A stretch of 64,000 nucleotides of DNA from an uncultured Candidatus Saccharibacteria bacterium (GTDB taxonomy: Bacteria > Patescibacteriota > Doudnabacteria > UBA920): positions 14,392-78,391 of the forward strand of contig CAYTCJ010000001.1 of the NCBI GenBank assembly GCA_964436545.1. Reading direction: 5' to 3'. Numbering within the stretch: position 1 is the stretch's first letter; the number at the start of each line of letters is the position of its first letter. The notes beneath the pieces are model-generated. The model was given only the letters and a program-made list of their open reading frames with translations, did not search any database and was not told the origin of the DNA. A program made the translations under genes and the position numbers. Positions 5-44,286 of the stretch are shown in pieces.

Positions 5-706
5 TTGGGGATTAGCGGTAAATACGATGCCAAAGTGTTGAATGGATTAGTTAAACAATATTGGGAGCCTGTGCCCAGAAAAAAATTTTTTGGTTGGCAA
101 AAAGCCAGCGATAAGCAAACTTCACCGAGGATTGAAGTGCAGTTTAAAGCCACCGAACAAGCGCATTTGGCTTTAGGGTTTAAAGGCTTGGCATATGGTG
201 ACAAACGCAATACTGCCCAGAGTGTTTTGTCGGCAATTTTAGGCGGAGGAATGTCTTCCCGGCTGTTTACCGAAGTGCGGGAAAAAAGGGGGCTGGGGTA
301 TTACGTAAGAGCCAGTGGCGGTTGTTATCAGGATACCGGAGTGTTTAATATTGGCGCCGGAGTGCAGGTGGATAAAATTGAAGAAGCCATAAAAATTATT
401 TTCCAAGAATTGGAAAAAATTAAATCATTTAAGGTTGGCGAGACTGAATTAACCAAAGCAAAGGAATTTTTAAAAGGCAAGACAATTTTGGCTTTGGAAG
501 ATAATCAGGTGAGACTGGATTGGTTTTTAGAGAGTACGGCTTTTCGGCCAAAAATTTTAACCCCGACCGAAGTGTTTAAAAAAATTGATGTGGTTAAAGC
601 AGAAGAAGTTCAAAAGGTGGCTAAAGCTTTGTTCAATAAAAAAACCATGACCTTGGCGGTAATCGGCCCGTATAAAAATGAAAAAATTTTTAAGCAATTA
701 ATTTAA
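5..706 (+). CDS. M16 family (insulinase-like) peptidase, C-terminal part; gene begins upstream of the window
   Basis: LGGGMSSRLFTEVREKRGLGYYV motif typical of M16 C-terminal domain; ORF open at window start. Confidence 0.75.
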   Translation: MGISGKYDAKVLNGLVKQYWEPVPRKKFFGWQKASDKQTSPRIEVQFKATEQAHLALGFKGLAYGDKRNTAQSVLSAILGGGMSSRLFTEVREKRGLGYYVRASGGCYQDTGVFNIGAGVQVDKIEEAIKIIFQELEKIKSFKVGETELTKAKEFLKGKTILALEDNQVRLDWFLESTAFRPKILTPTEVFKKIDVVKAEEVQKVAKALFNKKTMTLAVIGPYKNEKIFKQLI

Positions 707-1704
707 TGAGTATATCTATTGGTTGTCATGTTTCGGCTTCGGGGGGAGTTTGGAATGCGCCAAAGAATGCGTTTGATTTAGGTTGCGAAACTTTTCAAAT
801 CTTCACTCGTCCACCAATGGGTGGGCCTGCACCAAAGCTTGATGACGTGGTGGTTGAAAAATTTAAAATGGAAATGGTAAAATATTTTCCGAGTTTTAAC
901 TCCCCTCCTAAAGTAGGAGGGGATAAAGGGGTGGTATTTGTTGTCCATTGTCCGTATTTTGTAAATTTCGGTTCTGCTAAAAAAACCACTTATCACGGGT
1001 CAATTTCCGTGGTGTCCGAAGAATTAACACGGGCTAACTTACTTGGCGCAAAGTATGTTATGACCCACTTGGGGAGTTTTAAGGATTTAGGGCAAGCGGT
1101 AGGTATGAAGCAAGCTCAAGCGGGGTTAAAAAGCGTTTTGGAAAAATATGAAGGCAACTCCGACGCTACGGTCGGAGGAGTAAAAACAAAGTTTTTACTC
1201 GAAATATCTGCCGGAGCTGGAGAAGTGATTGGGGATACTTTTGAAGAATTAGCCGAACTTATGGAGCCATTAGTAAAATTTAAGACTTTCGGGGGGATTT
1301 GTTTTGACACCCAGCACGCGTTTTCAAGTGGCTATGATTTGCGCGATGCCTCATCAGTTGCCCAAACCTTTAAGGAGTTTGATAAAGTGATTGGCTTAAA
1401 ATGGCTAAAAATGAGTCATATGAATGATTCTAAAGTGGAATTAGGCGGAAAAAAGGACCGTCACGAACATATTGGGGAGGGAAAGATAGGCGAAAAGGGG
1501 TTTAAAGCAATTTTGGAGTATTTTAGCACCCTCTCTGTCCCGCACAAGCGGGACATCCCTGCCTTGCCGGCAGGCAGGTCTCCCAAGAAGGGAGAGAAAA
1601 ATAATGTGCTTCGCTTTATGCCCTTGATTTTGGAAACCGAACATGATAAAGTCAAAACAGATTTAAAAATTTTAAAACAATTAAGAGACAAAACTTTAAA
1701 ATAG
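706..1704 (+). CDS. nfo: Endonuclease IV (AP endonuclease family 2, xylose-isomerase-like TIM barrel) with two in-frame palindromic insertions
   Basis: N-terminal GCHVSASGG, HxxY/His-metal motifs; length 332 aa vs ~285 expected; insertions at 902-922 and ~1530-1597. Confidence 0.75.
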   Translation: MSISIGCHVSASGGVWNAPKNAFDLGCETFQIFTRPPMGGPAPKLDDVVVEKFKMEMVKYFPSFNSPPKVGGDKGVVFVVHCPYFVNFGSAKKTTYHGSISVVSEELTRANLLGAKYVMTHLGSFKDLGQAVGMKQAQAGLKSVLEKYEGNSDATVGGVKTKFLLEISAGAGEVIGDTFEELAELMEPLVKFKTFGGICFDTQHAFSSGYDLRDASSVAQTFKEFDKVIGLKWLKMSHMNDSKVELGGKKDRHEHIGEGKIGEKGFKAILEYFSTLSVPHKRDIPALPAGRSPKKGEKNNVLRFMPLILETEHDKVKTDLKILKQLRDKTLK

Positions 1705-2147: not shown

Positions 2148-2573
2148 ATGGCAGAGACTTTAGTAAGTCCAAGTGAAGTTAGTAGAGATTTAACTAAATT
2201 CGAAGTGGCAGACATTCAAGATATAAACAGTAAATTGGGCGATCCAGACGCAGATAGGGAATATTATGCATTTTTTAAGATGGAAGGCAATAGGTTTGGT
2301 AGATTTACAGTAGAGTTGGATAACGGAAATAATTTCGCAATTATTCCTTCAGACAAAAGTTTTACGCCAATTAAAAATTTAGTTTACGTGGTTTCTTTAA
2401 TTGCCAGGGTTGATGGAGGAAATCGAGATAAGAAATATAAGGGACTTTGGGCAAGTAAATCAGTAAGAGTTGTGGGTTATGTGGGTGAGTCAACAATTAA
2501 TCCCGATGCATTAATTGCGGACATGTTAGCACAGCAAGAAAAAATTTTAGAGAAAAAAAGAAATGCCAAATAA
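2148..2573 (+). CDS. hypothetical protein (141 aa)
   Basis: ORF overlapping metG start by 11 nt. Confidence 0.4.
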   Translation: MAETLVSPSEVSRDLTKFEVADIQDINSKLGDPDADREYYAFFKMEGNRFGRFTVELDNGNNFAIIPSDKSFTPIKNLVYVVSLIARVDGGNRDKKYKGLWASKSVRVVGYVGESTINPDALIADMLAQQEKILEKKRNAK

Positions 2574-4056
2574 ATTTTATTTAACCACCACTTTGCCATA
2601 TGTAAATTCCAGCCCTCATTTGGGGTTTGCTTTGGAAATGGTATTGGCCGACAGTATTGTTAGGTACCAAAAACTTTTAGGGGGGGAAGTATTTTTTAAT
2701 ACCGGTACCGACGAACACGGAGTGAAAATATTTAGAAAAGCTCAGGAAGAGGGTAAGGCGGTACAAAAGTATGTAGATGAGTTTGCGGAACAGTTTAAGC
2801 AATTAATGCCCGCTTTGGGGATTCTGCCCGAGATTCATTTTATTCGCACCACCGAAAAATATCATATTAACGCCTGCCAAGCTTTTTGGGAGCGTTGTTT
2901 TCAAAACGGGGATATTTATAAAAAGATTTATCATATTAAATACTGTGTGGGCTGTGAATTGGAAAAAACCGAAAGCGAATTAAGCTCGGACGGGAAATGT
3001 TTGGTGCATCCGAATTTGGTAATTGAAGTTTTAGAAGAAGAAAATTATTTTTTTCGGTTTAGTAAGTACCAACAATCTTTGTTAGAGTTTTACAAGCAAT
3101 CCCCCGATTTTGTGGTACCGGAATTTAGGTTTAATGAAATAAAAGAATTTGTAAAAAACGGTTTGCAAGATTTTTCCATTTCTCGGCTGAAAGAAAAAAT
3201 GCCTTGGGGAGTGCCGGTGCCCGGAGACGAAACTCAAGTAATGTATGTGTGGTTTGATGCTTTAATTAACTATGTTTCTACGCTAGGGTGGGGAGTAGAT
3301 AGCAATCAGCAAATCAGCAAATCAGCAAATCAGTTTACGGATTTTTGGGGTACAAAAGAAAAACCAAATGCCATACAAATTGCCGGTAAAGATAATTTAC
3401 GCCAACAATCGGCCATGTGGCAGGCTATGTTAATGTCTGCCGGGCTTCCCACCTCCAAACAAATTATCATTCACGGGTTTATTACCAGCGGAGGACAAAA
3501 AATGTCCAAGAGTTTAGGTAATGTGGCAGATCCTTATTCCATCTTGAGCCAGCTAAAAACCAAAGGGCTTACCAATGAGCAAGCTATAGATGCTTTACGA
3601 TATTATTTACTTAGAGAAATTCCCACTTTTGAAGATGGGGATTATACTTGGGAAAGGTTTGTAGAAAGTTATAATGCCAATTTGGCCAATGGGGTTGGAA
3701 ATTTAACGTCACGGATTTTGAAAATGGCAGTGAATGCCGGAATTATGAAGTATGAATTAGGAATTAGGAATGAGAAAACAAATCAGCATTTAGAAAAATA
3801 CGAACTCCAAAAAGCCATGGACCTGATTTGGCAAAAAATTAAAGCTTGTGACGAGTATATTCAAAAAACCGAACCCTTTAAACAAATTAAAGTGAATGAA
3901 GCGGAAGCTAAAAAAAATATTCAATTTTTACTTTCCGAATTGCATCAAATCGCCTTTGATTTACAAGCTTTTTTGCCTCATACGGCAGAGCAAATACTTA
4001 AAGCATTAACCGGAAATACGCAGAATGAAATTCCGCGTTTATTTCCAAGGATATAA
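2563..4056 (+). CDS. metG: Methionyl-tRNA synthetase (class I, minimal form) with short tandem-repeat insertion
   Basis: HLGF (HIGH-type) and KMSKS motifs; tandem caaatcag x3 at 3305-3335 encoding SNQQISKSANQ. Confidence 0.9.
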   Translation: MPNKFYLTTTLPYVNSSPHLGFALEMVLADSIVRYQKLLGGEVFFNTGTDEHGVKIFRKAQEEGKAVQKYVDEFAEQFKQLMPALGILPEIHFIRTTEKYHINACQAFWERCFQNGDIYKKIYHIKYCVGCELEKTESELSSDGKCLVHPNLVIEVLEEENYFFRFSKYQQSLLEFYKQSPDFVVPEFRFNEIKEFVKNGLQDFSISRLKEKMPWGVPVPGDETQVMYVWFDALINYVSTLGWGVDSNQQISKSANQFTDFWGTKEKPNAIQIAGKDNLRQQSAMWQAMLMSAGLPTSKQIIIHGFITSGGQKMSKSLGNVADPYSILSQLKTKGLTNEQAIDALRYYLLREIPTFEDGDYTWERFVESYNANLANGVGNLTSRILKMAVNAGIMKYELGIRNEKTNQHLEKYELQKAMDLIWQKIKACDEYIQKTEPFKQIKVNEAEAKKNIQFLLSELHQIAFDLQAFLPHTAEQILKALTGNTQNEIPRLFPRI

Positions 4057-4385: not shown

Positions 4386-4595
4386 ATGCCAGACGAAGAA
4401 CAAAATGAATCTAATGGTAATTGTGGTGGGGCCACAGGTTCTGCAGGGAGTGCGATTGGGGGTTTCTTAGGTGGTGTGGGTGGTGCTATTGGTGGTGCTT
4501 TGGGTGGTTTAGGTGGTATGGTGGGTGGGTTGTTAGGCGGATCGAATTCGGGAGAACCGGAAGCCGGCAATGGAGAAAATTCAGAGGAAAATTAA
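4386..4595 (+). CDS. Gly-rich small protein (GGxxGG repeats, acidic N and C termini)
   Basis: GGT-codon-rich ORF in the Gly frame; alternative frames give W/C-rich or Pro-rich products judged spurious. Confidence 0.3.
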   Translation: MPDEEQNESNGNCGGATGSAGSAIGGFLGGVGGAIGGALGGLGGMVGGLLGGSNSGEPEAGNGENSEEN

Positions 4596-4617
4596 AGGTC
4601 TAAGAAATATTAATTAA

Positions 4618-5289
4618 TTGAATAATCAAAAAGATGTTATGCCTTCAGAAGTTTATGATACGGATAGAGAAAATTTGGCAAAAGCTGATGCTAATTTAGT
4701 AAGAGTAGGATTAAATGTTAGTTTAATAAAAGAGTTTAAAAGAGTGTTGGACTTAGGAGCAGGAGATTGTGTAATTGAAAGAACAGTTACACAAGCTGGG
4801 GGTACGAATGTTACTTCTGTTGGATTAAAACCATCAAATACCAATCGATCAAGAGCTGTAAATTTTACTTCCATGGATATTACTCGGGGGGTGGGAAGAT
4901 TACCTTTAGCAAGTTTTGATTTAATTGTGAGTATTAACGGACCAATGGCTTTATCTAAAACCCGTGAACAAGCAGTAGCAATGTTGGAAAATTCAATTAG
5001 ATTATTGTCACCTCATGGTGAATTAAGGATTGCACCAATTCGTTTTGGTTTTATTAAACAGGAATTATTTTCTCGAGATGAAAGATATGCCAACATCCAA
5101 GGAAAATTATCACATTTAAGAACTGCAAAAGAAATTGATTATTTACAACAAGTTAATCAACAAGCAGATTCTTTGACTCAGGAAAGATTACGAAATTTAG
5201 GTTATGTGTTTGAGGTTGGTCATGGGCTAAATGGGATAGAAAACAGTTATTTGGTTTTTAAGAAAAGTCAAAATCCTTATGTTAATTGA
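4618..5289 (+). CDS. putative class I SAM-dependent methyltransferase-like protein
   Basis: VLDLGAGDC motif-I-like sequence; otherwise unassigned. Confidence 0.4.
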   Translation: MNNQKDVMPSEVYDTDRENLAKADANLVRVGLNVSLIKEFKRVLDLGAGDCVIERTVTQAGGTNVTSVGLKPSNTNRSRAVNFTSMDITRGVGRLPLASFDLIVSINGPMALSKTREQAVAMLENSIRLLSPHGELRIAPIRFGFIKQELFSRDERYANIQGKLSHLRTAKEIDYLQQVNQQADSLTQERLRNLGYVFEVGHGLNGIENSYLVFKKSQNPYVN

Positions 5290-6253
5290 CACTCACGCCC
5301 ATATTAATTTTAAAGCCTTTGAGGCTGATGCTACGGAAGTGGTTCAGCGCGCTTTTAATAATGGAGTAAGTCTAATCTTGGTGGGGACGCAAATAGATAC
5401 TTCTAAAGAAGCAGTTGAGCTTGCTGAGAAATTTAACTCCCCCGCCTTCGGTACCCCCTCTTTGGCCAAAGAGGGGGGAGGGGGAGTTTATGCTGTCGTG
5501 GGTCTTCATCCGGTTCATACTTACAGCCAGCATTTAGACGAAGAAGAAACCAGCTTTCAAACCCGCGAAGAAATTTTTGATTATGAAGCTTATTATAAAC
5601 TTGCCAGTCATCCGCTGGTGGTGGGTATAGGGGAGTGCGGATTGGACTATTACAGAATTAAGAATGATGAATTAGGAATTATGAATGTGGAAGAAATTAA
5701 GAAAAAGCAAAAACTGACTTTTATTCAGCAAATTAAATTAGCAAAAGAATTAGACAAGGCATTAGTGATTCATTGTCGGCCCAGTGTCGGCACGGCAGAT
5801 GCTTATGAAGATATCCTTCAAATTCTGGACCAAGAATTTGAAAAATTCCAAATTCCAAATCCCAAATTCCAAATGCGGTTTGAAATTCATTCTTTTACCG
5901 GTTCACCGGAGATTGCTATGGAGTTTGTAAAACGTGGCGCTTATGTAGGTTTAAATGGTATAATTACCTTTGGAGATCGAAAGACAAAAAATCTGACGAC
6001 ATCCTCCATAGCCTTGGCGAAGGAGGGTGATAAGACCGGTAATATGAAAAAAGTGGTGGAAACTGTGCCTTTGGAGCGAATAGTTTTGGAAACCGATTCG
6101 CCTTACCTAACTCCAGTCCCGCATCGAGGAAAACGCAATGAGCCTTTATTTGTTAAACACGTAGCAGAAAAAGTGGCGGAAATTAAAGGTGTGTCTTTAG
6201 AAGAAGTGGCAAAAACCACAACTCAAAACGCTAAATTGTTATTTAATATTTAA
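5279..6253 (+). CDS. tatD: TatD family metal-dependent hydrolase (DNase) with in-frame palindromic and microsatellite insertions
   Basis: MLIDTHAHINF start, TatD His/Asp/Glu pattern; insertions at 5440-5490, 5850-5885, 6005-6030. Confidence 0.85.
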   Translation: MLIDTHAHINFKAFEADATEVVQRAFNNGVSLILVGTQIDTSKEAVELAEKFNSPAFGTPSLAKEGGGGVYAVVGLHPVHTYSQHLDEEETSFQTREEIFDYEAYYKLASHPLVVGIGECGLDYYRIKNDELGIMNVEEIKKKQKLTFIQQIKLAKELDKALVIHCRPSVGTADAYEDILQILDQEFEKFQIPNPKFQMRFEIHSFTGSPEIAMEFVKRGAYVGLNGIITFGDRKTKNLTTSSIALAKEGDKTGNMKKVVETVPLERIVLETDSPYLTPVPHRGKRNEPLFVKHVAEKVAEIKGVSLEEVAKTTTQNAKLLFNI

Positions 6254-6257: not shown

Positions 6258-9200
6258 ATGACTAAGTATAATCCAAAAAAAACCGAAGCGAAATGGCAAA
6301 AATTTTGGCAGACCCGAAAAATTTTTGTTGGCAAAGATTTTTCCAAAAAACCTAAAAAATTTGTCTTAGTGGAATTTCCATATCCTTCCGGTGCGGGTTT
6401 GCATATGGGCCATTTGCGTCCCTATGTGGCTGCCGATGTCTATGCTCGGTTTTGCAGAATGAAAGGTTTTGAAACTTTATTCCCCATGGGCTGGGATGCT
6501 TTTGGGCTTCCGGCAGAAAATTATGCTCTAAAAATGGGCGTGCATCCGGCCATTACCACCAAAAAGAACATTGCCAATGCTAAAAAACAAATGTTGTCTT
6601 GGGGACTTTCGTTCGATTGGAGCCGGGAAATTAATACCACAGATCCGAATTACTATAAATGGACACAGTGGTTATTTTTACAGTTCTATAAAAAGGGTTT
6701 GGCTTTTGAAGCGACCGGAGTCATTAATTGGTGTCCTTCTTGTAAAACTGGTTTGGCTAACGAAGAAGTGATAGACAACAGTTGTGAGCGTTGTGGCACT
6801 AAAGTGGAAAAGAAAGAATTAAGGCAATGGTATTTAAAAATTACTCAATACGCGGAAAAGTTATTGCAAGGTTTGGAAACTTTAAAAGCTTGGCCCGAAC
6901 CGGTAAAACTTCAACAACAGAATTGGATTGGTAAAAAAACCGGAATAAATATTACTTACGATATTGTTTCGGATAAGGCAGATTCAAATTATGTTTTACT
7001 TCATGGGTTTAACGGAAGCAGTGAGGGGATATTTTTTCCGTGGTTAAAACAAGAATTAAACAAACGAACAGTAAAAGTAGTTTGTCCTAATTTACCTAAC
7101 GCCAATCATCCCACAGAAGATGAACAAGTAGCATATGTGTTAAAAACTTGCGAATTTAATTCTCGCACTATTTTATTTGGCCATAGTTTAGGCGCGGTGG
7201 TGGCTTTAAAGGTGTTAGAAAAATTAAACACTAAAATTGCCGGAGTGGTTTTAGCCGGGGGTTTTACCAATCCAAATTTTAAAGATAATTCAAGACCGTT
7301 TGCAAAAACTTTTAATTGGCAGTTTGATTTTAATAAAATTAAATCCAATGTGGATTTTGTAAAGATTCTTAGCGATCCCACAGATTATGCCATTCCCACA
7401 GAGCAAGGAAAGAATCTGCAAATGAACTTGGCAGGCGCTCTTTTGGAAATCCCCGGTGAAAAACCGCATTACACTTCGGAAGTGGAACCTAATATTTTAA
7501 ACGCACTTCTACCTAACATTACTTGCTTTACCACTCGGCCAGACACCAACTTTGGAGCGACCTTTGTGGTAATCGGACCGGAACATCCGTATTTAAAACA
7601 TAGGCAAATTTTAAATATTGGCACCAAAGCTTGGCAAGCCATTGAAGCTTATAAGCAACAAGCTTTAAGCCAAGGCGATGAAGTTAGAACTGCGGAAAAC
7701 CGTAAAAAGACCGGAGTGTTTACGGGTTTGTATTGTTTGAACCCGCTCACTAATTTTAAAATGCCGTTATATGTGGCAGATTATGTGCTGGGGAATGTGG
7801 GTACCGGGGCGGTGGTGGGTGTGCCTGGGCATGACAAGCGGGATTTTGAATTTGCCCAAGTTTTTAATTTGGAAATTAAACGCGTGGTACAAAAGCATGA
7901 ACAAGACAATTTACCCATAACCACCTTAGAGCAAGTTCAGGAAGAAACAGGGGTTATGGTAAATTCCGAATTTTTAAACGGGTTAGATATCCATACCGCC
8001 ACAGAAAAAATTATGGATTATATGGAAAGTCAAGGAATGGGTAAACGAGTGGTAAATTATAAATTACGGGATTGGGTATTTAGTCGCCAAAGGTATTGGG
8101 GTGAACCTATTCCTTTGGTGCACTGTGAAGATTGCGGGGTAGTGCCGGTACCGGAAAAAGATTTGCCGGTTAAACTGCCCAAAGTAAAAAAATATGAACC
8201 TACCGGCACCGGGGAATCACCCTTGGCAGATATTTTAAATTGGGTTAAAACCAAATGCCCACAGTGTAAAAAGTTGGCTTATCGGGAAACTAACACTATG
8301 CCTCAGTGGGCAGGGAGTAGTTGGTATTGGTTAAGATTTACCGATGCCAAAAATTCCAAAGCTTTTGCATCTATCAAAAACCAAAAATACTGGACTCCGG
8401 TAGATGTATATTTTGGCGGAATGGAGCATACGACTTTGCATTTGCTTTACAGCCGTTTTTGGAATCAATTTTTGTTTGATAATGGCTTGGTAGTTTCCAG
8501 CGAACCCTATAGTTTGCGCAAACCTCACGGCATTGTTTTGGGTCCGGATGGCGAAAAAATGTCCAAGTCTCGGGGTAATGTGGTAGATCCGCAAGCGATA
8601 ATTAAACTTTATGGCGCAGATACCTTAAGAATGTATGAATTATTTTTAGGTCCGCATGAGGCCATGGTGGCGTTTAATGATAAAGGCGCCGTAGGGGTAA
8701 AACGGTTTTTAGATAGAATGTGGGATTGGGTATTAAATAATATCAAATATCAAAAATCAAATATCAAAGATTCGGAAAAAGTGGAGCAGGAATTGCATAA
8801 ATTAATAAAGAAAATCACTGAAGATATTGAAAATTTCCGCTTTAATACTTGTATCTCCGCTTTTATGGAGTTTTATAACCAAATTAAAGAAGAGAAGGTC
8901 TCTTGGGAAGTAATAAAAACTTTTTTAATTTTATTGTATCCTTTTGCCCCGCACGTAGCCGAAGAGTTGAATCAGCTTGCCAGCTCGTCAGCTAATCAGC
9001 GAATCCTCCGTCGCCATGGCTATGGAGGACAAGTCAGAAAGTCAGCGAATCAAAAAATTATTAAGTCACTCCAGTTGGCCAAGTGGCCGGAGTTTGACAG
9101 TACGAAAATTGTTCAGAAAGAAGCGGAAATTGTAATTCAAATTAATGGAAAAGTGAAAGGTAAAATTCAAGTGGGGTTTGATTCAGCCGAAGAGGCGGTT

Positions 9201-9305
9201 AAAGTGGAAGTTTTAAAATTGGAGGTTATTAAACAAGCTCTAATTAACGATAGCATTAAGCGAGTGGTATTTGTTAAGAACCGATTAATTAATTTGGTAA
9301 TCTAA
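6258..9305 (+). CDS. leuS: Leucyl-tRNA synthetase carrying an inserted alpha/beta-hydrolase domain (~6975-7500) at the CP1 editing-domain junction
   Basis: HMGH and KMSKS motifs, TTRPDT editing motif; 1015 aa vs ~800-860 typical; insertion contains LLHGFNGSS and GHSLGA nucleophile elbow. Confidence 0.9.
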   Translation: MTKYNPKKTEAKWQKFWQTRKIFVGKDFSKKPKKFVLVEFPYPSGAGLHMGHLRPYVAADVYARFCRMKGFETLFPMGWDAFGLPAENYALKMGVHPAITTKKNIANAKKQMLSWGLSFDWSREINTTDPNYYKWTQWLFLQFYKKGLAFEATGVINWCPSCKTGLANEEVIDNSCERCGTKVEKKELRQWYLKITQYAEKLLQGLETLKAWPEPVKLQQQNWIGKKTGINITYDIVSDKADSNYVLLHGFNGSSEGIFFPWLKQELNKRTVKVVCPNLPNANHPTEDEQVAYVLKTCEFNSRTILFGHSLGAVVALKVLEKLNTKIAGVVLAGGFTNPNFKDNSRPFAKTFNWQFDFNKIKSNVDFVKILSDPTDYAIPTEQGKNLQMNLAGALLEIPGEKPHYTSEVEPNILNALLPNITCFTTRPDTNFGATFVVIGPEHPYLKHRQILNIGTKAWQAIEAYKQQALSQGDEVRTAENRKKTGVFTGLYCLNPLTNFKMPLYVADYVLGNVGTGAVVGVPGHDKRDFEFAQVFNLEIKRVVQKHEQDNLPITTLEQVQEETGVMVNSEFLNGLDIHTATEKIMDYMESQGMGKRVVNYKLRDWVFSRQRYWGEPIPLVHCEDCGVVPVPEKDLPVKLPKVKKYEPTGTGESPLADILNWVKTKCPQCKKLAYRETNTMPQWAGSSWYWLRFTDAKNSKAFASIKNQKYWTPVDVYFGGMEHTTLHLLYSRFWNQFLFDNGLVVSSEPYSLRKPHGIVLGPDGEKMSKSRGNVVDPQAIIKLYGADTLRMYELFLGPHEAMVAFNDKGAVGVKRFLDRMWDWVLNNIKYQKSNIKDSEKVEQELHKLIKKITEDIENFRFNTCISAFMEFYNQIKEEKVSWEVIKTFLILLYPFAPHVAEELNQLASSSANQRILRRHGYGGQVRKSANQKIIKSLQLAKWPEFDSTKIVQKEAEIVIQINGKVKGKIQVGFDSAEEAVKVEVLKLEVIKQALINDSIKRVVFVKNRLINLVI

Positions 9306-9351: not shown

Positions 9352-10053
9352 TTGGGATGCCCTTCGTTGATTTGGATTGCGTTTATGATTATTTTTAAGT
9401 ATTCTAAACAACAACACAACCAAATAATCCAAGCCAGTGTGAAAGCTTTAAAACAAGGTAAAATTATAGTTTACCCGACTGATACTTGTTATGGTTTGGC
9501 AGTGGATGTGAGCCGGCTTCAGGCCATAAAACAACTTTACAAATTAAAAGGTAGAAATTTTAACAAACCCAGTTCCGTGGTGGTGCCGAGTTTGGCTTAT
9601 GCAAAAAAAATTGTGCAGTGGGGTAGTGAGGCACAGAAATTGGCAAAAAAGTTTTGGCCGGGAGCTATAACTTTGGTTTGCTCCCTCACCCTACCCTTTC
9701 CCTCTAGGGGAGAGGGGAGAGGGTTTAGAATTCTAACCGCAAAGACAAATTTTTTAGGTTTAAGACTGCCAAAAAATAGACTCGCTCTCGATTTAGCCAA
9801 AGGCTTAAAAAAGCCCATTACCGCAACTTCTGCCAATTTGGCGGGAAAAAGTGAGTGTTATTCAGTAGATGAAATTGTTCAACAATTTCAGCATCAAAAA
9901 ATTAAACCCGATATTATTATTGACGCTGGCAAATTACCTTTCCAAAAGCCATCTACTTTGGTAAAGCTGGAACATTCCGGTCAAGTATCCATAATTAGAC
10001 AAGGGCCCATTACTCAGTCACAAATTAAAAAAATTATAAACGCTAAACGCTAA
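9352..10053 (+). CDS. tsaC: L-threonylcarbamoyladenylate synthase (YrdC/Sua5 family) with in-frame palindromic insertion
   Basis: YPTDTCYGLAVD motif; imperfect cccctc-type palindrome at ~9681-9726 encoding PFPSRGEGRG. Confidence 0.8.
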   Translation: MGCPSLIWIAFMIIFKYSKQQHNQIIQASVKALKQGKIIVYPTDTCYGLAVDVSRLQAIKQLYKLKGRNFNKPSSVVVPSLAYAKKIVQWGSEAQKLAKKFWPGAITLVCSLTLPFPSRGEGRGFRILTAKTNFLGLRLPKNRLALDLAKGLKKPITATSANLAGKSECYSVDEIVQQFQHQKIKPDIIIDAGKLPFQKPSTLVKLEHSGQVSIIRQGPITQSQIKKIINAKR

Positions 10054-10072: not shown

Positions 10073-11221
10073 ATGCTTTTAAATTTTCATTTATCCAATT
10101 ACTTTACCAAGCAAGTGAGAGAAGAGATTGGCGAATTGTATGCTCATTCCGCCATAGCTAATTTGGCCGGCTCTATGATGTTATTATTTGAGCCGATTTT
10201 TCTTTATGCGGTTTTAGATTTTTCTGTGGAAGAGGTTTTGTTGTTTACTGCACTGGTTTACGCAGTCTATATCCTCTGCATTCCTTTGGGAGGTAAGTCC
10301 GCCAGTCTGTTTGGTTATAAACATACCATTGCTTTAAGTGTGCCTTTCCAAATTATTTATTGGATGTTATTAATTGTCTCTCAGCAGGGGGTGGGTTTTG
10401 CTTATTTGGCGGCGGTTTTTTATGGATTGTCTAAAACTTTTTATTGGCCGGGTTTTCATTCTTTAATGGCCCGCTATTCGGACAAGGGTCAAGTGGGTAG
10501 GGAATTTGGCGCTGTGTATTCTTTAATTAGTTTAACTTTTATTGCCGGACCGTTTTTAGCCGGTTTTTTGTCTAAGCATTTTGGTTTTACCATTACTTTT
10601 GTGATTACTGCCATTATTTACGCCTTTAGTTTAGTGCCACTGTTTAGAGTTAAAGAAAGTTTTACGCCCAAAGAATATTTTTATAAAGATACTTGGGAAT
10701 TATTCCGCAGTTATCCCAAAAAGTTTTTAGGTTATTTGGGTTTTGGGGAAGAGTTGTTGGTTTTGAATATTTGGCCAATTTTTATTTATTTAATCGTGAA
10801 AGATTTTGAAAAGGCCGGGGGTTTAGCTACTATTGCCAGTTTAATTGCCGCCATTTTGGCTTTAATTATTGGGAAAGTTACGGACCAGTATTCTAAACGG
10901 GTATTAATTCGTTTAGGTGCTTTTTTTACAGCTTTGGTGTGGTTAATGCGGACCATTGCTACTAATTTTTGGAATACTTTTTTTGTTGACGCCTTGTCTA
11001 GAACCAGTAAAGAGATGGCCTTTATTCCCATTTCCACAGTTACCTACATTCGCGCGCAAAATATTCATGTGGTGCCCTATGTGGTTTTTTTTGAACAAAG
11101 TTTAGCCATTGGTAAATTAATAGCTTGTATTTTAGGGATTATTTTGTTTAGCTTAACCGGCAGTTTTGTGGTATTATTTGTGCTGGGTGCCGTATTTAGC
11201 TTATTGTATATGTTTGTGTAA
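10073..11221 (+). CDS. MFS-type transporter
   Basis: ~12 hydrophobic segments, MFS-like layout. Confidence 0.65.
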   Translation: MLLNFHLSNYFTKQVREEIGELYAHSAIANLAGSMMLLFEPIFLYAVLDFSVEEVLLFTALVYAVYILCIPLGGKSASLFGYKHTIALSVPFQIIYWMLLIVSQQGVGFAYLAAVFYGLSKTFYWPGFHSLMARYSDKGQVGREFGAVYSLISLTFIAGPFLAGFLSKHFGFTITFVITAIIYAFSLVPLFRVKESFTPKEYFYKDTWELFRSYPKKFLGYLGFGEELLVLNIWPIFIYLIVKDFEKAGGLATIASLIAAILALIIGKVTDQYSKRVLIRLGAFFTALVWLMRTIATNFWNTFFVDALSRTSKEMAFIPISTVTYIRAQNIHVVPYVVFFEQSLAIGKLIACILGIILFSLTGSFVVLFVLGAVFSLLYMFV

Positions 11222-11270
11222 AAACGCGGATTTTGCGCTGATATTAACGCGGATTAGCGCTAATAAGCAT

Positions 11271-11654
11271 ATGAAGTTATTATATGAAAAAGAATCCTAC
11301 GAAATCCGAGGCGCTTGTTTTAAAATTTGGAAGGAATTTGGAAACGCATATAAAGAATCAGTAGTGGATAAAGCGCTTACCTTGGAGCTTTTAACAAGGG
11401 GTTTGCAAGTTAGTGAACAAAAAAGAATTAATATTTACTATAATGATAAAAAAGTTGGTACTTATGTGCCAGATAAAGTGGTAAATGAAATTATTATTAT
11501 TGAGTTAAAGACCAAACCTTTTTTAACTCAAGGCGATATTAAACAGTTATGGCACTACTTGAAAGGTTCGAATTACAAATTAGGTTTTTTAGTTAACTTC
11601 GGAGATAAACTTGAAATTAAACGTATTGTTTACGACACGGCACGCTCTGCGTAA
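11271..11654 (+). CDS. GxxExxY family protein (PD-(D/E)XK-like)
   Basis: YEIRGA...LELLTRGL...YVPDKVVNEIIIIELK...LVNFG pattern matches GxxExxY family; flanked by inverted repeats. Confidence 0.7.
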   Translation: MKLLYEKESYEIRGACFKIWKEFGNAYKESVVDKALTLELLTRGLQVSEQKRINIYYNDKKVGTYVPDKVVNEIIIIELKTKPFLTQGDIKQLWHYLKGSNYKLGFLVNFGDKLEIKRIVYDTARSA

Positions 11655-11688: not shown

Positions 11689-12939
11689 ATGCACTATTCA
11701 AACATTCAAGCAGAAGACTTACCTGTTTATGAGATTATTAAACGGGAAGAACAAAGACAAAAAGAGGGGATTGAATTGATTGCCAGTGAAAATTATGTAT
11801 CCAAAGCCGTGCTGGAGGCCATGGGGAGTATTTTAACTAACAAATATTCGGAAGGATATGTGGGCAAAAGGTATTATGGGGGTAATGAAATTATTGACCA
11901 AGCCGAGGGTTTAGCCATAGACAGAGCTAAACAATTATTTGAGGCAGAGCATGTAAATGTTCAACCATTGTCCGGCAGTCCGGCTAACTTAGCTGTGTAT
12001 ATGGCGTTGTTAAACCCGGGAGATAAAGTGTTGGGTTTTTCTTTGGACCAAGGCGGGCATTTGTCTCATGGTCATCCGTTAAATTTTAGTGGTAAACTTT
12101 ATACCATTGTGCCTTATTTTGCCAGAAAAGATACGGAAATTATTGATATGGATGAAGTAGAAGATATAGCTTTAAAGGAAAAACCAAAAATGATCTTAGC
12201 TGGTTTTAGCGCGTATTCTCGTTCTTTAGAGTGGAAACGTTTTAGAGAAATTGCAGACAAGTGTGGGGCATTGTTATTTGCTGATATTGCTCACATTGCC
12301 GGGTTAATTGCCGGCAAACAGTTAGAAAACCCTGTGCCATATTGCGATGTGGTTTCGACCACAACTCATAAAACTTTAAGAGGCCCTCGGGGTGCCATGA
12401 TTATGTGTAAAGAAAAATTTGCAAGTGCCATAGATAAAGCTGTGTTTCCAGGCGTGCAGGGTGGACCTCATGATCACATTAATGTAGCCAAAGCTATTTG
12501 TTTTGGCGAAGCTTTGCGTTCGGAATTTGTAGAATATTCAAAGCAAGTGATTGTCAATGCTCGTGCGCTTGTTATTGCGCTTCAAACCAAAGGCTACAGG
12601 ATAATTTCAGGTGGAACTGATAACCATCTAATGCTCATAGATTTGTTCGGGAGTAAAAGTATTACTGGCAAAGAAGCAGAAAAAGCTTTGGAGCACGTAG
12701 GAATTAGCATCAATAAAAATATGATTCCGTTTGACCCCAGAAAACCTTTGGACCCTTCGGGGATTCGGTTAGGCACACCGGCTTTAACCACAAGAGGTTG
12801 TAAGGCCACCAATATGCAAACCGTGGCGGATTTAATTGACGTGACCTTAATGCACAAAGACGACCCGATAAAATTAAAAGCCATTCAAGAACAAGTTAAG
12901 GCGTTTGCTTTAAAGTTTCCGGTTCCGGGTATAGAATAA
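11689..12939 (+). CDS. glyA: Serine hydroxymethyltransferase
   Basis: PLP-lysine region TTTHKTLRGPRG; 416 aa. Confidence 0.9.
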   Translation: MHYSNIQAEDLPVYEIIKREEQRQKEGIELIASENYVSKAVLEAMGSILTNKYSEGYVGKRYYGGNEIIDQAEGLAIDRAKQLFEAEHVNVQPLSGSPANLAVYMALLNPGDKVLGFSLDQGGHLSHGHPLNFSGKLYTIVPYFARKDTEIIDMDEVEDIALKEKPKMILAGFSAYSRSLEWKRFREIADKCGALLFADIAHIAGLIAGKQLENPVPYCDVVSTTTHKTLRGPRGAMIMCKEKFASAIDKAVFPGVQGGPHDHINVAKAICFGEALRSEFVEYSKQVIVNARALVIALQTKGYRIISGGTDNHLMLIDLFGSKSITGKEAEKALEHVGISINKNMIPFDPRKPLDPSGIRLGTPALTTRGCKATNMQTVADLIDVTLMHKDDPIKLKAIQEQVKAFALKFPVPGIE

Positions 12940-14749: not shown

Positions 14750-14876
14750 TGCTTGACCCCGTTAAAAGTCAGTCCCGACGAGTCGGGACTGCTGGCGAGA
14801 TAGCTCGCCAGACTTCTAACAGGGTTGACCCCGTTAAATCCGCCAAAGGCGGAACCGCACAGCGGTTATTTAACTG

Positions 14877-14905
14877 GGTTGACAACTTTTTTAAAAGGTT
14901 TATAC
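14877..14905 (+). promoter_or_regulatory. sigma70-like promoter (TTGACA-16nt-TATACT) firing into the non-coding region
   Basis: hexamers read in sequence. Confidence 0.3.
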
Positions 14906-15699
14906 TAATTATAGATACAGCAATGAATACCTTAAATTTAACTAATTTTCCTTCCGTCCGCCCAAGTCTCGTGAAGACTTTTATTTGGCATGCGCGGGGT
15001 TGGAATATGAGGTAGAATACAGAAAATCTCATAAACCTAAGCCAAAACCCCGCAAATAGGGGTTTTATTAATTTGTCATTCGGAACTTGTTTCAGAATCT
15101 AAAGCACATTAAAAATCAAAGACATCTTCCCATAATCTGCTTTCAACTGATTTTTTTCACAATTTTGAGCGAAAAACCTGAAGAGGAATGAAAGTGTAGC
15201 CAACGGCTACAGTGAATTCCGATGAAGTTTTTGCAGCCAAAATTTGGAAAAAAGGCTTGAAACTGAGATTATGGGAAGATGTCTAATAGCTATTGCTCGC
15301 AGAAATTCATCTTTTCTCTGTCATCCCGACCCGACTTCGCTAAAGCTTCGTCGGGCAAGCCGATTTTAGTAAATTTAGATGAGTGGTTTGCCCACCGTAG
15401 CCTTGGCGAAGGTGGGAGGGATCCCCCCTCTTTTCCAAAGAGGGGGTAGGGGGAGTTAAATGAAAAGGATTAATTTCCGCGAGCAATCGCAACAGTATGA
15501 GGTAGTCAAGCAATCTTACCGGATTGTTTGAGTGATAGCGTAAAGTTTGTTGAAGATATATTCCGCAATTATAGGAAAAAAAACTTCAACAGATTGCTAT
15601 CATAGGAAGGCACCGAACAACCTTCTATTCTACCTCATCCAATTTGGCGGTCCCTGCAAAGGGCAAAGAGAAAGTTGGCCACTTGTGGGCTAATAATTA

Positions 15700-16240
15700 T
15701 CTTTGGAGTTGAGCTTTTAGCTCCTCCCGCCTAAAAAGATGGCGGTATTACCGCCCTGACTCGTGTCTGTCGCACGAGCAGTAAGTCCTGCCGTAAAGGT
15801 GGGATGAAAAGAAGCGCGACGACAGCGCGCAAATAAGGAGGTGCTAAAAATGCACACCGAACTTCTCCCGGCGGCGCCCCCGCTCCGACCGGCACCGTCC
15901 ACCCTGCTCGTCCCGCCAATTCCCTCACCCGTCCCGATTCGTTTGCTCCGACGGGAGGAGAAGGAAGAGGCTCACGCCAGAGAGTGGTATGAGCTGAGGT
16001 CGTAGTGTGGGGCTTTGACAAGGTAAACCTCGCCATTGGCGGGGTTAAAAAGGCCAAATTATAGAGCCTTCCTTGTCACATTGTAGTTTTTTTTGCGAGA
16101 CGGTCAACAGCTGTTCCGTTTCGCACCCACGCCCGCAAGGGCCGTACTTGTAGAGAATCGTTTCATATTTTCATCTTCGATTCCTACAGTGCGGTCCTTG
16201 CGGGCACTGTTTCTTAATTTTTTTTCCGCCCCTTAGTAGG
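15700..16240 (+). ncRNA. GC-rich non-coding island; candidate large structured RNA of unknown class (strand uncertain)
   Basis: high GC in an AT-rich genome, no credible ORF, multiple GNRA-capped hairpins (gcccgcaagggc, ccttgcgggc), upstream promoter. Confidence 0.25.
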
Positions 16241-16428
16241 TGGTTTTTTTATTTATAAAAAATGATTATTGTCTTCGATCGTTTATGTCCTGATAGCTTT
16301 AAACTAAAAAAACGACTTAAGTCGTTGGTTAAGCATTTCGTTGGTCGGACTGCCGGGAATTCCTGCCTGCCGGCAGGCAGGGAACCCGGTCTATATGCAC
16401 CTTCACCCCGTTAAATATAATTTGTTTT

Positions 16429-16502
16429 TGGTCGGGATGCTGGGAATCGAACCCAGACTACATCCACCCCATGGACGCGTACTACCACTATACTACATCC
16501 CG
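16429..16502 (-). tRNA. tRNA-Pro (anticodon GGG), 74 nt, encoded CCA
   Basis: acceptor CGGGATG/CATCCCG, D-loop AGTGGTA, anticodon loop AUGGGGU, T-loop TTCGATT. Confidence 0.75.
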
Positions 16503-29546: not shown

Positions 29547-29639
29547 TGTCATTCTGAACTCGTTTCAGAATCTATCTTGTTAATTTATAAAATAGATTCC
29601 GGACAATTTTAATAGCAAAATAAAATTTCCGGAATGACA
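29547..29639. mobile_element. MITE-like element, family A (TIR TGTCATTC(C/T)GAA ... TTCCGGAATGACA), in rpsL leader
   Basis: related copies at 30951-31069, 34472-34531, partial 15074-15098. Confidence 0.5.
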
Positions 29640-34471: not shown

Positions 34472-34531
34472 TGTCATTCCGAATTTATTTCGGAATCTAT
34501 CTATGGATCCTGAAACAAGTTCAGGATGACA
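34472..34531. mobile_element. MITE-like element, family A copy in the tuf 5' leader
   Basis: two adjacent hairpins attccgaa..ttcggaat and atcctgaa..ttcaggat flanked by GTCAT/ATGAC. Confidence 0.5.
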
Positions 34532-37188: not shown

Positions 37189-37854
37189 ATGAACTTTGCA
37201 ATTGGCAGAAAAGTGAATATGACCCAAATTTTTGATGCCACCAGTGGTGTGGTTTTGCCTGTGACCGTAATTAAAGTTACGCCCATGGTTATTACTCAAG
37301 TGAAAACCAGCACTGGAAAAGATAAGTACAATGCGGTGCAAGTGGGTGTCGGGTTTAAGAAAAACTTGTCAAAATCTATCACCGGACATGTAAAAAAAGC
37401 CGGCAGTTTTGGCATCATTTCAGAATTTAAAGTTACCGATACTCAAGACTATGCAGTAGGCAAAAAATTAGATTTAAGTGGCTTTCAAGTCGGTGAAGTG
37501 GTTAAAGCAGTGGGAACTTCCAAAGGTAGAGGTTTTCAGGGTGCCATTAAGAGGCATGGCTTTGCCGGTTTTCCGGCCAGTCACGGACACGATAAGCCCA
37601 GAAGCGTAGGGAGTATTGGTCAAAGATGGCCCCAGCACGTTAGAAAAGGTATGCGCATGGCCGGGCACATGGGTAATACTCAAGTTACAGTAAAAAATTT
37701 ACAAGTGGTACAGGTGGATAATAAACACCATTTAATTGCCCTTAAAGGCGCGGTACCCGGAGCTATGAATTCGATTGTAAAAATTATTAGCACCGGTAAA
37801 GTCAAACCTTTGGTAAAAGTGGAAGTGGTTAAGGAAGAGAAAAAGAAGAAGTAA
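37189..37854 (+). CDS. rplC: 50S ribosomal protein L3
   Basis: GRKVNMTQIFD... Confidence 0.9.
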   Translation: MNFAIGRKVNMTQIFDATSGVVLPVTVIKVTPMVITQVKTSTGKDKYNAVQVGVGFKKNLSKSITGHVKKAGSFGIISEFKVTDTQDYAVGKKLDLSGFQVGEVVKAVGTSKGRGFQGAIKRHGFAGFPASHGHDKPRSVGSIGQRWPQHVRKGMRMAGHMGNTQVTVKNLQVVQVDNKHHLIALKGAVPGAMNSIVKIISTGKVKPLVKVEVVKEEKKKK

Positions 37855-37857
37855 AAA

Positions 37858-37943
37858 AGTAGTAAGTTGTAAGTGGGTAAGTAGCCAGCCTGACGGCAAG
37901 GCAGGTAAGTACTTACAACTTTACAACTTACTACTTACAACTT
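37858..37943. repeat. 85-nt palindromic spacer repeat (gtaagttgtaagt...cctgcctgacggcaaggcagg...acttacaactta), copy 1
   Basis: copies also at 43591-43653, 44197-44283, 45628-45713. Confidence 0.6.
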
Positions 37944-37948
37944 GTTAT

Positions 37949-38599
37949 ATGAAAATTCCAGTTTACAATCAACAAGCCGAAGTTGTCGCAGAAATGGATT
38001 TAAATCCTAAGATTTTTGAAGTTAAGCCAAAAGCGCATTTATTGGCCGAAGCGGTGAGAATTCAGCTATCCAATGCCAGACAAGGCGGAGCCAATACTAA
38101 AACTCGAGGTGAAGTAAGAGGTGGGGGTAAAAAACCTTGGAAGCAAAAAGGCACCGGCAGGGCCAGAGCCGGTTCCATAAGAAGTCCGATTTGGCGAGGT
38201 GGGGGTATAACTTTTGGTCCGAAAGCTAACCGAAATTGGGAATTAAAGTTGAACCAGAAAGCCAAGACCCAAGCTCTGTTTATGTCCCTGTCCGATAAAG
38301 CCAAAGAGCAAAAGTTAATTGTTTTAGATAAGTTAACTTTGCCCGAGATGAAGACGAAAGCTTTGGTAAAAATTATGGCAGACTTAAAACAAGGTTTAAA
38401 GACAATGGGGAAAAGTCAGTTGGTGGTGTTATCGGGTAAAGATGAAAACTTAATTAAGTCGGCGCGTAATTTAACTACTGTAAAAACCATTTTTGCCAAG
38501 AACTTGAATTTATTGGAAGTACTTAAAGCCGATACCTTAGTGGTTTTAAAAGATAGCTTGCCGGTAATTGAAAAGACTTATTTAAAGACTAGTAAGTAA
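37949..38599 (+). CDS. rplD: 50S ribosomal protein L4
   Basis: operon position and sequence. Confidence 0.9.
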   Translation: MKIPVYNQQAEVVAEMDLNPKIFEVKPKAHLLAEAVRIQLSNARQGGANTKTRGEVRGGGKKPWKQKGTGRARAGSIRSPIWRGGGITFGPKANRNWELKLNQKAKTQALFMSLSDKAKEQKLIVLDKLTLPEMKTKALVKIMADLKQGLKTMGKSQLVVLSGKDENLIKSARNLTTVKTIFAKNLNLLEVLKADTLVVLKDSLPVIEKTYLKTSK

Positions 38600-38659
38600 T
38601 AGGTAGTAGGTAGCATTTAGTTCTTTCTAAACGCTATTCCTTAAACGCTAAAAATATTT

Positions 38660-39019: not shown

Positions 39020-39094
39020 ATAGTAAGTAGTGGGTAGTAGGTAGCATTTAGTTCTTTCTAAACGCTACTTACTAAACGCTAACCGCTGATTCAT

Positions 39095-43589: not shown

Positions 43590-43590
43590 A

Positions 43591-44283: not shown

Positions 44284-44286
44284 GTT

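Follow-up and report, generated by a model that had tools for sequence, protein, structure and literature searches.

The locus and the material compared

This study concerns short repeats that are translated within housekeeping proteins of a 64-kb window (the whole stretch of DNA analysed, 64,000 nt) from a Patescibacteria genome, chiefly arrays of an AATCAG-containing octamer in the genes for methionyl-tRNA synthetase (metG, MetRS), leucyl-tRNA synthetase (leuS, LeuRS) and DnaX, together with the heptamer arrays and GC-rich palindromes that accompany them. The window is DNA of the candidate phyla radiation (CPR) with 39 % GC, and the best relatives of its DnaX and MetRS bear the labels Candidatus Doudnabacteria or Patescibacteria group. 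A first-pass annotation, made from the sequence alone, had proposed AATCAG-type in-frame repeats in metG, leuS and dnaX, encoding (I)SKSANQ segments absent from canonical homologs, as well as other k-mer repeats in leuS and tatD. We found all of these in the places given, give or take a few bases. The metG, leuS and dnaX segments are built from a common N-AATCAG-N unit within essential proteins, alignments of MetRS, DnaX and LeuRS show them to be lineage-specific in-frame insertions, and the further leuS and tatD repeats (leuS site 1 and tatD site 3; Table 1) are real heptamer arrays of the same nature.

Relatives are designated here by L numbers. Among them, L165 is fully syntenic with the window (M16 peptidase, AP endonuclease, MetRS, TatD, LeuRS, Sua5 and major facilitator superfamily (MFS) transporter), with protein identities of 80-88 % in five of six orthologous pairs and 68 % for Sua5. 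The LeuRS cluster supplied the relatives of 85-94 % identity, namely L166 and L167 (94 %) and L165 (85 %), and the 90 % clusters of MetRS, TatD, DnaX and RuvX held one member each. Arrays were counted with Tandem Repeats Finder (TRF), at a threshold of at least 2.8 copies per array, in the window plus 163 related loci (1.98 Mb), with codon-block shuffles of the same 1.98 Mb as the null and 50 kb of E. coli DNA that includes the same ribosomal operons as a second control.

AATCAG octamer arrays in MetRS, DnaX and LeuRS

Read in triplets, the 8-nt unit runs through all three frames and gives a peptide rich in S, N, Q and K; three units make 24 nt, so that exactly eight residues are added and the peptide repeats every eight residues, and three 7-nt units (21 nt) likewise add seven. 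The metG array at site 1 is an 8-aa, three-unit insertion in a length-variable loop downstream of the LGW motif, where the alignments show a gap of 13 aa against PDB entry 2csx and of 8 aa against 4dlp. The five dnaX units lie in the zinc-module loop, which measures 48 aa from NC to the residues before the CGxC motif. The baseline length of this loop is 5 aa, found in E. coli tau/gamma and in 36 of ~110 Patescibacteria homologs, with 11-50 aa in more than 50 others. In an AlphaFold2 (AF2) model of DnaX that used an alignment of 53 sequences, residues 62-110 have a predicted local distance difference test (pLDDT) score of 44-75 between flanks above 90, which indicates that the insert is a disordered surface loop, as predicted by the model.

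In LeuRS, site 2 is the linker joining the anticodon-binding and C-terminal domains, 33 aa long here vs 8 aa in the T. thermophilus enzyme (1h3n). A GC-rich palindrome divides its array into two halves, GTCAGCTAATCAGCGAA (8987-9003) and TCAGAAAGTCAGCGAATCA (9034-9052), and the whole encodes SSSANQ-RILRRHGYGGQV-RKSANQ; the same site in L165 encodes SSSANQRISKSANQ, which places the ISKSANQ peptide in a third protein. A separate peculiarity of this synthetase is an alpha/beta-hydrolase domain (Ser_hydrolase/Abhydrolase_1) inserted at residues ~245-365 (window 6990-7350), with the N-terminal catalytic part on one side and the editing domain on the other, and also found in the 85 % identical protein P0125 of L165.

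A fourth gene, ruvX, contains AATCAG units as native residues and not as an insertion. The stretch is kept between distant species with two or three units (RNQQISK in L002, 14891-14910) and is a proto-array conserved among them, such as might serve as a starting point for slippage. Across the window, the + strand holds 31 copies of AATCAG, 12 of them in arrays, and the - strand 7; the remaining 19 on the + strand compare with ~21 expected from our own base-composition estimate. A reading of the motif as a DNA uptake sequence or uptake signal sequence (DUS/USS) was rejected, single copies outside arrays not being over-represented.

The repeat tract is unstructured (array fold z = +0.3), and an Rfam search of the window returned two tRNAs only and no family matching the tract. 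Searched against 5.8 billion proteins, the translated (AATCAGCA)n peptide matched only long arrays in tiny hypothetical open reading frames (ORFs) of unrelated bacteria, in a search that is blind to inserts of 11-13 aa.

Age and descent of the AATCAG arrays

Orthologous arrays are present at metG in L165, L005 and L085, and at dnaX in L001 (71 % aa identity), L004 (58 %) and L002 (48 %). The metG array has four units in the window, L165 and L005, and in L085 three intact units and a fourth, degenerate one (AACCAG); its DNA is identical in L165, whose MetRS is 82 % identical. Unit counts at dnaX over the four species are 5, 5, 5 and 8, L002 having the three additional units. No length heterogeneity of the kind that slippage would produce was otherwise seen in this cross-species comparison. 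At dnaX, each species has its own 16-nt super-period in the spacers, suggesting turnover inside this array.

Within this genome the spacer bases are specific to the locus (GCAAATCA in metG, GTCAATCA/GTAAATCA in dnaX, GCTAATCA/GCGAATCA in leuS), and each AATCAG array is closer to its own ortholog elsewhere than to the other arrays of the genome. It follows that the arrays are old and have been passed down vertically, each at its own locus, and the earlier idea of one repeat now spreading between genes has to be given up. Ectopic homogenisation among the arrays of this genome is likewise ruled out by the locus-specific spacers.

Heptamer arrays and a clade-wide census

The repeats extend beyond AATCAG and beyond information-processing genes: TatD, an AP-endonuclease-like protein and Sua5/TsaC carry other arrays and palindromes (Table 1). 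Among the heptamer arrays, those at metG 3740-3786 and tatD 5655-5701 are sister copies of one family (D5), 79 % identical. The consensus unit of metG site 2 contains a stop codon, and its in-frame occurrence reads TAT, not TAG. At leuS site 1 the array differs even in the 94 % identical relatives, and AATCAGG and AAATCAGA arrays stand there in L008 and L010.

Table 1. Genes and in-frame repeat features of the window, by position.
Feature	Position	Strand	Description
AP_endonuc_2 ORF	706-1704	+	AP-endonuclease-like TIM-barrel protein (Pfam)
Composite, second copy	1528-1607	+	in frame in the AP_endonuc_2 ORF; own nested 21-nt mini-hairpin at 1558-1578
metG	2563-4056	+	ORF (Pfam)
metG site 1	3304-3333	+	(AATCAGCA) x3.8, 100 % pure (TRF); encodes SNQQISKSANQ
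metG site 2	3739-3771	+	GGAATTA-type heptamer array; encodes GIMKYELGIRNE
tatD	5279-6253	+	ORF (Pfam)
tatD site 1	5435-5488	+	GC-rich nested palindrome (CCCCCTCTTTGG/CCAAAGAGGGGG); encodes SPAFGTPSLAKEGGGG; fold z = -2.8; absent from 15 orthologs
tatD site 2	5655-5701	+	GAATTAKGAAT heptamer array; encodes KNDELGIMNVEE; family D5
tatD site 3	5843-5874	+	(AAATTCC) x4.6 heptamer array; encodes KFQIPNPKFQ; large hairpin-element inserts here in relatives
tatD site 4	5971-6027	+	57-nt insertion with D19 palindrome CCTCCATAGCCTTGGCGAAGGAGGG at its end; site empty in L165
leuS	6258-9305	+	ORF (Pfam); product 1015 aa
leuS site 1	8739-8768	+	(AATATCA) x4.3 heptamer array; encodes NIKYQKSNIKD
leuS site 2	8987-9052	+	octamer array GCTAATCA GCGAA|TCA GAAAGTCA GCGAATCA, split by 30-nt D19-family palindrome at 9004-9033
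Sua5/TsaC insert	9683-9723	+	GC-rich palindromic or array insert (CCCTC..AGGGGAG x2.6); encodes LPFPSRGEGRG; differs in L165
dnaX	54773-56422	+	ORF (Pfam)
dnaX array	54959-54997	+	five N-AATCAG-N units; encodes QSVNQSISKSANQ; zinc-module loop
dnaX composite hairpin	54998-55080	+	ACCCTCTTTGTCCC-loop-GGGACATC, then TCTCCCCC..GGGGGAGA; fold z = -3.6; AF2 pLDDT 44-56
ruvX	57851-58237	+	gene (Pfam)
ruvX two-unit stretch	57986-58006	+	two AATCAG units (AGTCAGCAAATCAGCAAGATA); encodes native NSQQISK; family D14

Across the 1.98 Mb, period 7 accounted for 140 arrays, period 8 for 34 and period 9 for 30, whereas the shuffles gave 0 period-7 arrays and at most one of period 8-9; the 50-kb E. coli control contained no period-7/8 arrays. 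About half of the arrays lie in long ORFs, with 62 period-7 and 20 period-8 arrays inside ORFs of at least 150 aa, and the density in the window (4.2 arrays per 10 kb) is among the highest of the set. Arrays of the AATCAG type are found in genes only and in sense orientation only, and none of the 113 non-ORF arrays contains ATCAG or CTGAT. The complement of AATCAG, CTGATT, contains TGA. Stop codons in both orientations occur in 54 of 92 intergenic period-7/8 units, and some coding arrays, too, have stop-containing consensus units.

GC-rich palindromes and mini-hairpins

Dispersed GC-rich palindromic mini-elements of 21-80 nt coexist with the arrays, and their reading frame varies by gene. Strong folding of both strands (z = -2.8 to -3.9) marks the GC-rich parts as DNA palindromes. 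By size they form three families, the 21-nt CCTGCC-N9-GGCAGG, the 25-30-nt CCTCC..GGAGG and the ~60-80-nt TGTCCC..GGGACA. The smallest is present in six aligned copies (1558, 16362, 37885, 44224, 45655 and 55036), and its core CTGCC..GGCAG gives eight pattern matches in the window vs 0.27 expected. The second family, D19 (CCTCC-N15-GGAGG), has three copies, at tatD 6003-6027, at leuS 9005-9029 and at 15392; the tatD copy is read as SSIALAKEG, the leuS copy in a different frame as ILRRHGYGG. The largest, a composite of the form ACCCTCTYTGTCCC-loop-GGGACATC..TCYCCC-loop-GGGRGAGAAAAATAWTGT, has two copies, in dnaX and in the AP_endonuc_2 ORF, read in partly different frames. Nesting is seen in the dnaX copy, in which the 21-nt mini-hairpin CCTGTCTGCCGACAAGGCAGG (55036-55056) occupies the loop of the larger hairpin.

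Related elements occur elsewhere in the window and in relatives. Three copies of an inverted-repeat element, TGTCATTCNGAAYTYRTTTCAGAATCTA, lie at 15074-15101, 29547-29574 and 34472-34499, and hairpin peptides related to it (RHSEGVRPNEES..EILRFAQND) are inserted in TatD of L006, L007 and L014. In L165, a dispersed GC-rich CCCATTCGRCAGGCTCAGGRCA lies within LeuRS (12480-12545), TatD (8640-8800) and the AP endonuclease (4480-4640), its frames reading PIRQAQGRQ, HSASSGHA and LHSTGSGHA.

Among the ribosomal-protein genes, four intergenic hairpins of ~100 nt (37854-37953, 43579-43655, 44193-44292 and 45624-45723) have arms of (AAGTAGT)n and (ACTTACA)n and the 21-nt CCTGCC..GGCAGG mini-hairpin at the tip, with fold z of about -5.7 on both strands; the E. 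coli spacers at these positions measure ~10-30 nt. They may serve in processing, termination or stabilisation, or be no more than selfish repeats. Further intergenic repeats of the ribosomal-protein operon (38572-38651, 39003-39082, 42688-42782, 46674-46767, 41068-41107 and 47230-47266) pair (TAGTAGG/GTAGTAAG)n arms with (CTAAACG/CACTAAG)n arms and are rich in GTAG, the tetranucleotide that flanks the repetitive extragenic palindromes (REPs) of E. coli.

Insertion hot spots and recent movement

The loops that carry these repeats hold different inserts in different relatives. At MetRS site 1, arrays or GC palindromes are present in 13 of 27 relatives and nothing in the other 14. AATCAG units occupy the site in the window, L005, L085 and L165; a hairpin array, (CATGAAN)n, does so in L006 and L086 (fold z = -6.4 for L006); and further relatives have (CGGATAAC)n..(CCGACTT)n, (GACAAGA)4, (AGTGACG)4, (GTGGACA)4 or (GATTAAA)3, two of the array kinds other than AATCAG forming hairpins. 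GC-rich palindromes such as CCCTCC..GGAGGG are found there in L007, L009, L024, L010 and L088. Likewise, other arrays or GC palindromes appear at MetRS site 2, varied arrays (AATCAGG and AAATCAGA among them) at LeuRS sites 1 and 2, and varied arrays and hairpin elements at the four TatD sites. The MetRS neighbour-joining tree is star-like at 73-85 % identity, a shape from which gains and losses of AATCAG cannot be told apart. Insert types are out of step with nearest neighbours, as in L085 (AATCAG), which is nearest to L088 (GC palindrome), and this points to fast turnover of the site or to parallel gains.

Between the window and L165, the clear length differences in the six orthologous pairs fall in arrays or GC-rich palindromes. 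At metG site 2 the heptamer array of the window is replaced in L165 by a palindrome encoding LLPWRGE, tatD site 1 has nested additions in L165, and the 57-nt insert at tatD site 4 is filled in the window and empty in L165. The 21-nt dnaX hairpin is missing from three orthologs, with a border ambiguity of at most CC. At leuS site 2 the array is uninterrupted in L165, L166 and L167 (GCTAATCA GCGAATCA GCAAGTCA GCGAATCA), so that arrays pre-exist and can take in palindromes; in the window the 30-nt palindrome TCCTCCGTCGCCATGGCTATGGAGGACAAG is inserted between GCGAA and TCA, with a duplication of at most 2 nt (TC). This palindrome arrived after the split from the 94 % identical relative, and it is the GC-rich palindromes, not the arrays, for which there is direct evidence of recent movement. 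Comparison of filled with empty sites gives border ambiguities of at most 2-3 nt, and the few flanking repeats of 8-12 nt all lie inside arrays.

Origin of the repeats

The AATCAG arrays are best read as old, translated low-complexity insertions within a genome-wide population of small repeats that is selfish or near-neutral. On balance, we think it probable that this population reflects slippage or template switching, the independent dispersal of hairpins, and a selection that admits inserts to tolerant loops if they are hydrophilic, keep the frame and lack stops. Slippage during replication, or template switching, would multiply units of 7-9 nt in tandem and thereby build arrays, intergenic and genic alike, while very small GC-rich hairpin elements, presumably moved by an agent, would disperse into hairpin loops, arrays and genes. 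Selection would then retain those inserts that preserve the frame (three-unit steps, 21 nt for 7 aa or 24 nt for 8 aa), whose units are free of stops on the sense strand, as AATCAG is, and that place hydrophilic residues in length-tolerant loops or linkers. Selection for tolerated insertions would make permissive loops look like hot spots with species-specific inserts, and the encoded peptides themselves would be neutral.

Several observations weigh against this account. The ATCAG core recurs at no fewer than five independent sites (MetRS site 1, the DnaX loop, LeuRS site 1 in L008 and L010, LeuRS site 2 and, natively, RuvX). If any stop-free coding heptamer or octamer were free to expand, a unit would contain ATCAG with a probability of 0.9 %, and on this null at least 5 of ~60 sites gives an uncorrected p of ~2.5e-4; the value fails correction over all 1024 5-mers and, the motif having been picked post hoc among them, is suggestive only. 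The logo of 51 units, N-A(90 %)-A(92 %)-T-C-A(96 %)-G-N, has a core that is 90-100 % invariant (T, C and G being set by the pattern searched for), and its two spacer positions are free to vary. Where residues are identical, the codons agree in 83 % of cases within the dnaX array vs 50 % elsewhere (p = 1e-6 for pooled, non-independent pairs) and in 73 % vs 49 % for metG. In the comparison with L165, the array ranks first in conservation among the 14-codon stretches of metG (third positions 100 % vs a mean of 53 %; 2 of 482 windows), and the leuS array is near the top (93 % vs 56 %). The AATCAG arrays are thus more conserved at the DNA level than expected of a neutral passenger, an unexplained residue for which homogenisation, together with every unit position being non-synonymous in some frame, may account. 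No copy-number polymorphism was seen in a comparison that runs across species (single-member 90 % clusters), so that ongoing slippage is not demonstrated. As for the palindromes, flanking direct repeats of at least 7 nt at 2056 GC islands, sought as target-site duplications (TSDs), numbered 56 vs ~43 in shuffled-pair controls, which is no clear signal, and Pfam found no transposase, REP-associated tyrosine transposase (RAYT, Y1_Tnp) or reverse transcriptase among ~40 ORFs scanned in the window, 64 kb of the genome.

There is some room for an uncharacterised Patescibacteria system of ultra-small mobile or templated repeats in which 7-8-nt arrays and 21-30-nt hairpins continually remodel surface loops of essential proteins, the AATCAG arrays serving as a multimeric recognition site selected in DNA or RNA, or as insertion target and footprint; we regard such a system as unlikely, if worth keeping in mind. 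If arrays were footprints, mini-elements making a 7-8-bp staggered cut with an AATCAG-like preference would leave duplications through cycles of insertion and excision, and the growing array would offer more targets. That would account for the narrow range of unit lengths and for the recurrence of a few unit sequences, and GC palindromes are indeed found repeatedly inside or flanked by arrays (L165 leuS site 1, AGTTATCA[34 nt]AGTTATCA; L094, AGTATCAAGTAT[palindrome]AGTATCAAGTAT; L144, CCAAATAC[..]CCAAATAC), just as arrays often adjoin palindromes, in dnaX, at L165 tatD site 1 and in intergenic D1 elements. Yet the sole dated insertion, that in leuS, and the dnaX hairpin show the near-absence of duplication described above, the GC islands do not exceed their control, and many arrays, such as metG site 1, have no palindrome nearby; within a periodic array, a TSD-free insertion is also indistinguishable from one with a TSD of one period. 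We give footprints a small chance of being the explanation. Selection of (AATCAG-NN)n at the DNA or RNA level, as a multimeric binding site or an unstructured A-rich expression tract with the peptide as by-product, has a chance that is likewise small. It fits the invariant core and free spacers in species down to 48 % DnaX identity, the raised synonymous-site conservation, the single-stranded tract and its recurrence in MetRS, LeuRS and DnaX beside the native stretch in RuvX, but it is at odds with orthologs that mostly lack the tract and have unrelated units, palindromes or nothing at those sites, with the unremarkable frequency of AATCAG outside arrays, with an 8-nt spacing that mismatches the DNA helical repeat, with the palindrome tolerated midway in the leuS array and with the lack of an Rfam match.

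Were the peptides themselves adaptive, as flexible S/N/Q/K-rich linkers or interaction patches that tune, for example, the C-terminal domain of LeuRS or the zinc module of DnaX, one could understand why ISKSANQ is identical in MetRS, DnaX and the LeuRS of L165 despite some codon differences (three of the four metG-dnaX DNA differences are synonymous), and why the inserts lie in linkers or loops, where length can matter. In P0015, the DnaX of L002, however, the peptide is altered to GIRESVDQ with the DNA core retained, the same loops take chemically unrelated inserts or none, DNA elements common to several genes are read in different frames, and the DnaX segment is predicted to be disordered with low confidence scores, all of which makes protein-level adaptation decidedly improbable. 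Assembly or sequencing errors, or chimeric joins, come to mind for a contig from a metagenome-assembled genome, since repeats can mislead assemblers, and the first-pass annotation had named an assembly artefact as something that could undo its proposal. We see practically no chance of this: arrays of ~30-40 nt are shorter than a read and leave long ORFs intact, at least seven assemblies, made independently in different studies (L001, L002/L003, L004, L005, L085, L165 and L166/L167), have orthologous arrays, and an independent Logan assembly encodes an identical AP-endonuclease protein, element included.

Relation to known repeat systems

Rickettsia palindromic elements (RPEs) are in-frame palindromic repeats within genes (Ogata et al. 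2000, as far as they are presented in PMC10969869). The likeness to our elements is considerable: dispersed palindromic families lie in frame in unrelated housekeeping genes of a reduced-genome host, are translated as extra segments at fold-compatible positions and also have intergenic copies. Here, palindromic families are dispersed in several copies within one genome, and in-frame inserts at structurally permissive sites occur in tatD, leuS, dnaX, the AP-endonuclease ORF and Sua5. RPEs are set apart by size and frame use, measuring about 100-150 bp with one peptide per family, whereas the elements described here measure 21-80 nt, are GC-rich in a 39 % GC genome, are nested and tied to 7-8-nt arrays, and belong to another phylum; their copies are read in different frames, so that no single conserved peptide results, unlike in RPE families.

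Heptamer tandem repeats of cyanobacteria (short tandemly repeated repetitive sequences, STRRs) were reportedly described by Mazel in 1990, and very small dispersed repeats (SDRs) of 21-27 nt, also cyanobacterial, are said to have been reported by Elhai and co-workers in 2008. Repeats of both kinds are mentioned in PMC5861425, PMC3116915, PMC4692102 and PMC4679880. In the present system, too, 7-nt arrays dominate and inverted pairs often form hairpins, although the resemblance is functional only, and the 21-nt mini-hairpin sits nested in the loops of hairpins and next to or within arrays, its orthologous sites being filled in some cases and empty in others. The STRR, TAACTGA and GGGAATC repeats lie overwhelmingly between genes, whereas some half of the arrays described here lie in frame inside genes, essential ones included, and both unit sequences and taxon differ. 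We know of no description of protein-loop hot spots for the cyanobacterial repeats.

In the survey by Mrazek, Guo and Shah (2007), as represented in PMC4679880 and PMC4692102, period 7 is the commonest among long simple sequence repeats (SSRs), polymerase slippage is proposed, and coding regions tolerate units in multiples of three. Period-7 arrays are the commonest class here as well; the difference is that 7- and 8-nt units predominate within genes, with the frame kept by three-unit steps and stop-free units. Contingency loci of Haemophilus, Neisseria and Mycoplasma resemble our arrays in being short tandem repeats in coding sequences of small-genome bacteria, but their units measure 1-5 nt, as against 7-8 nt in 4-8 copies within essential cytoplasmic housekeeping genes; every ortholog examined was in frame, and no on/off frameshift variants of the kind that phase variation produces were seen.

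Short imperfect palindromes in large numbers, partly composite or nested, with GTAG-rich intergenic copies, recall REPs, the bacterial interspersed mosaic elements (BIMEs) with their RAYTs, and MITEs (miniature transposable elements with inverted repeats). In contrast to these, many copies here lie within genes and are translated, the 64-kb window yielded neither a RAYT nor another transposase, and no clear signature of a terminal inverted repeat (TIR) with a TSD, as in MITEs, was found. Mobile GC clusters and 'byp' elements of yeast mitochondria, the latter reportedly translationally bypassed according to Lang and colleagues (2014), are likewise GC-rich palindromic mini-elements that invade a compact AT-rich genome, coding genes included, and nest. 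All copies described here are in frame and stop-free, unlike 'byp' elements, so that ordinary translation suffices and there is no sign of bypassing. In the literature searched, we found no description of such repeats in Patescibacteria. We class the system as a variant of RPE-, STRR- or SDR-like repeats that is novel in the tiny size of its elements, the coupling of arrays to hairpins, the 7- and 8-nt units within genes and the host phylum.

CPR genomes are deemed extremely streamlined, and yet MetRS, LeuRS, DnaX, TatD and TsaC carry several translated repeat pieces, to which the placeable length differences between close relatives belong. Such inserts affect the alignment and phylogeny of CPR marker proteins, structure prediction and estimates of indel evolution. 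Gene calling is affected as well, since an array or a hairpin is open to reading in several frames. The inserts are also a natural experiment on which protein loops tolerate insertion and, given the period-7/8 bias and the mobile 21-nt hairpins, may offer a route to a new mutational or mobile mechanism.

Other features of the window

Between parB and tRNA-Pro, ~1.6 kb (14750-16430) contain almost no long ORFs and several palindromes; the GC content reaches 85 % at 15843-15987, and no Rfam match was obtained for the region even at E < 0.1. GC-rich tandem repeats at 52361-52647 (GGACAT x3.3, 21-nt units, G-runs), which would encode a low-complexity peptide rich in His and Gly, lie between a gene for a VirD4/TrwB-like ATPase and ORF 52734-53351. 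The gene at 58224-58796 encodes a type IV pilin-like protein with an N-terminal methylation motif and has a weak match (58224-58793, E = 2.7e-4, below the Pfam cut-off) to ComP_DUS, the receptor for DNA uptake sequences, which had suggested the uptake-sequence reading of AATCAG rejected above. Finally, a small gene for a PD-(D/E)XK (PDDEXK_3) nuclease at 11166-11651 overlaps the start of the serine hydroxymethyltransferase (SHMT) gene and has a homolog in L002 (16410-16631), making it a candidate selfish nuclease.

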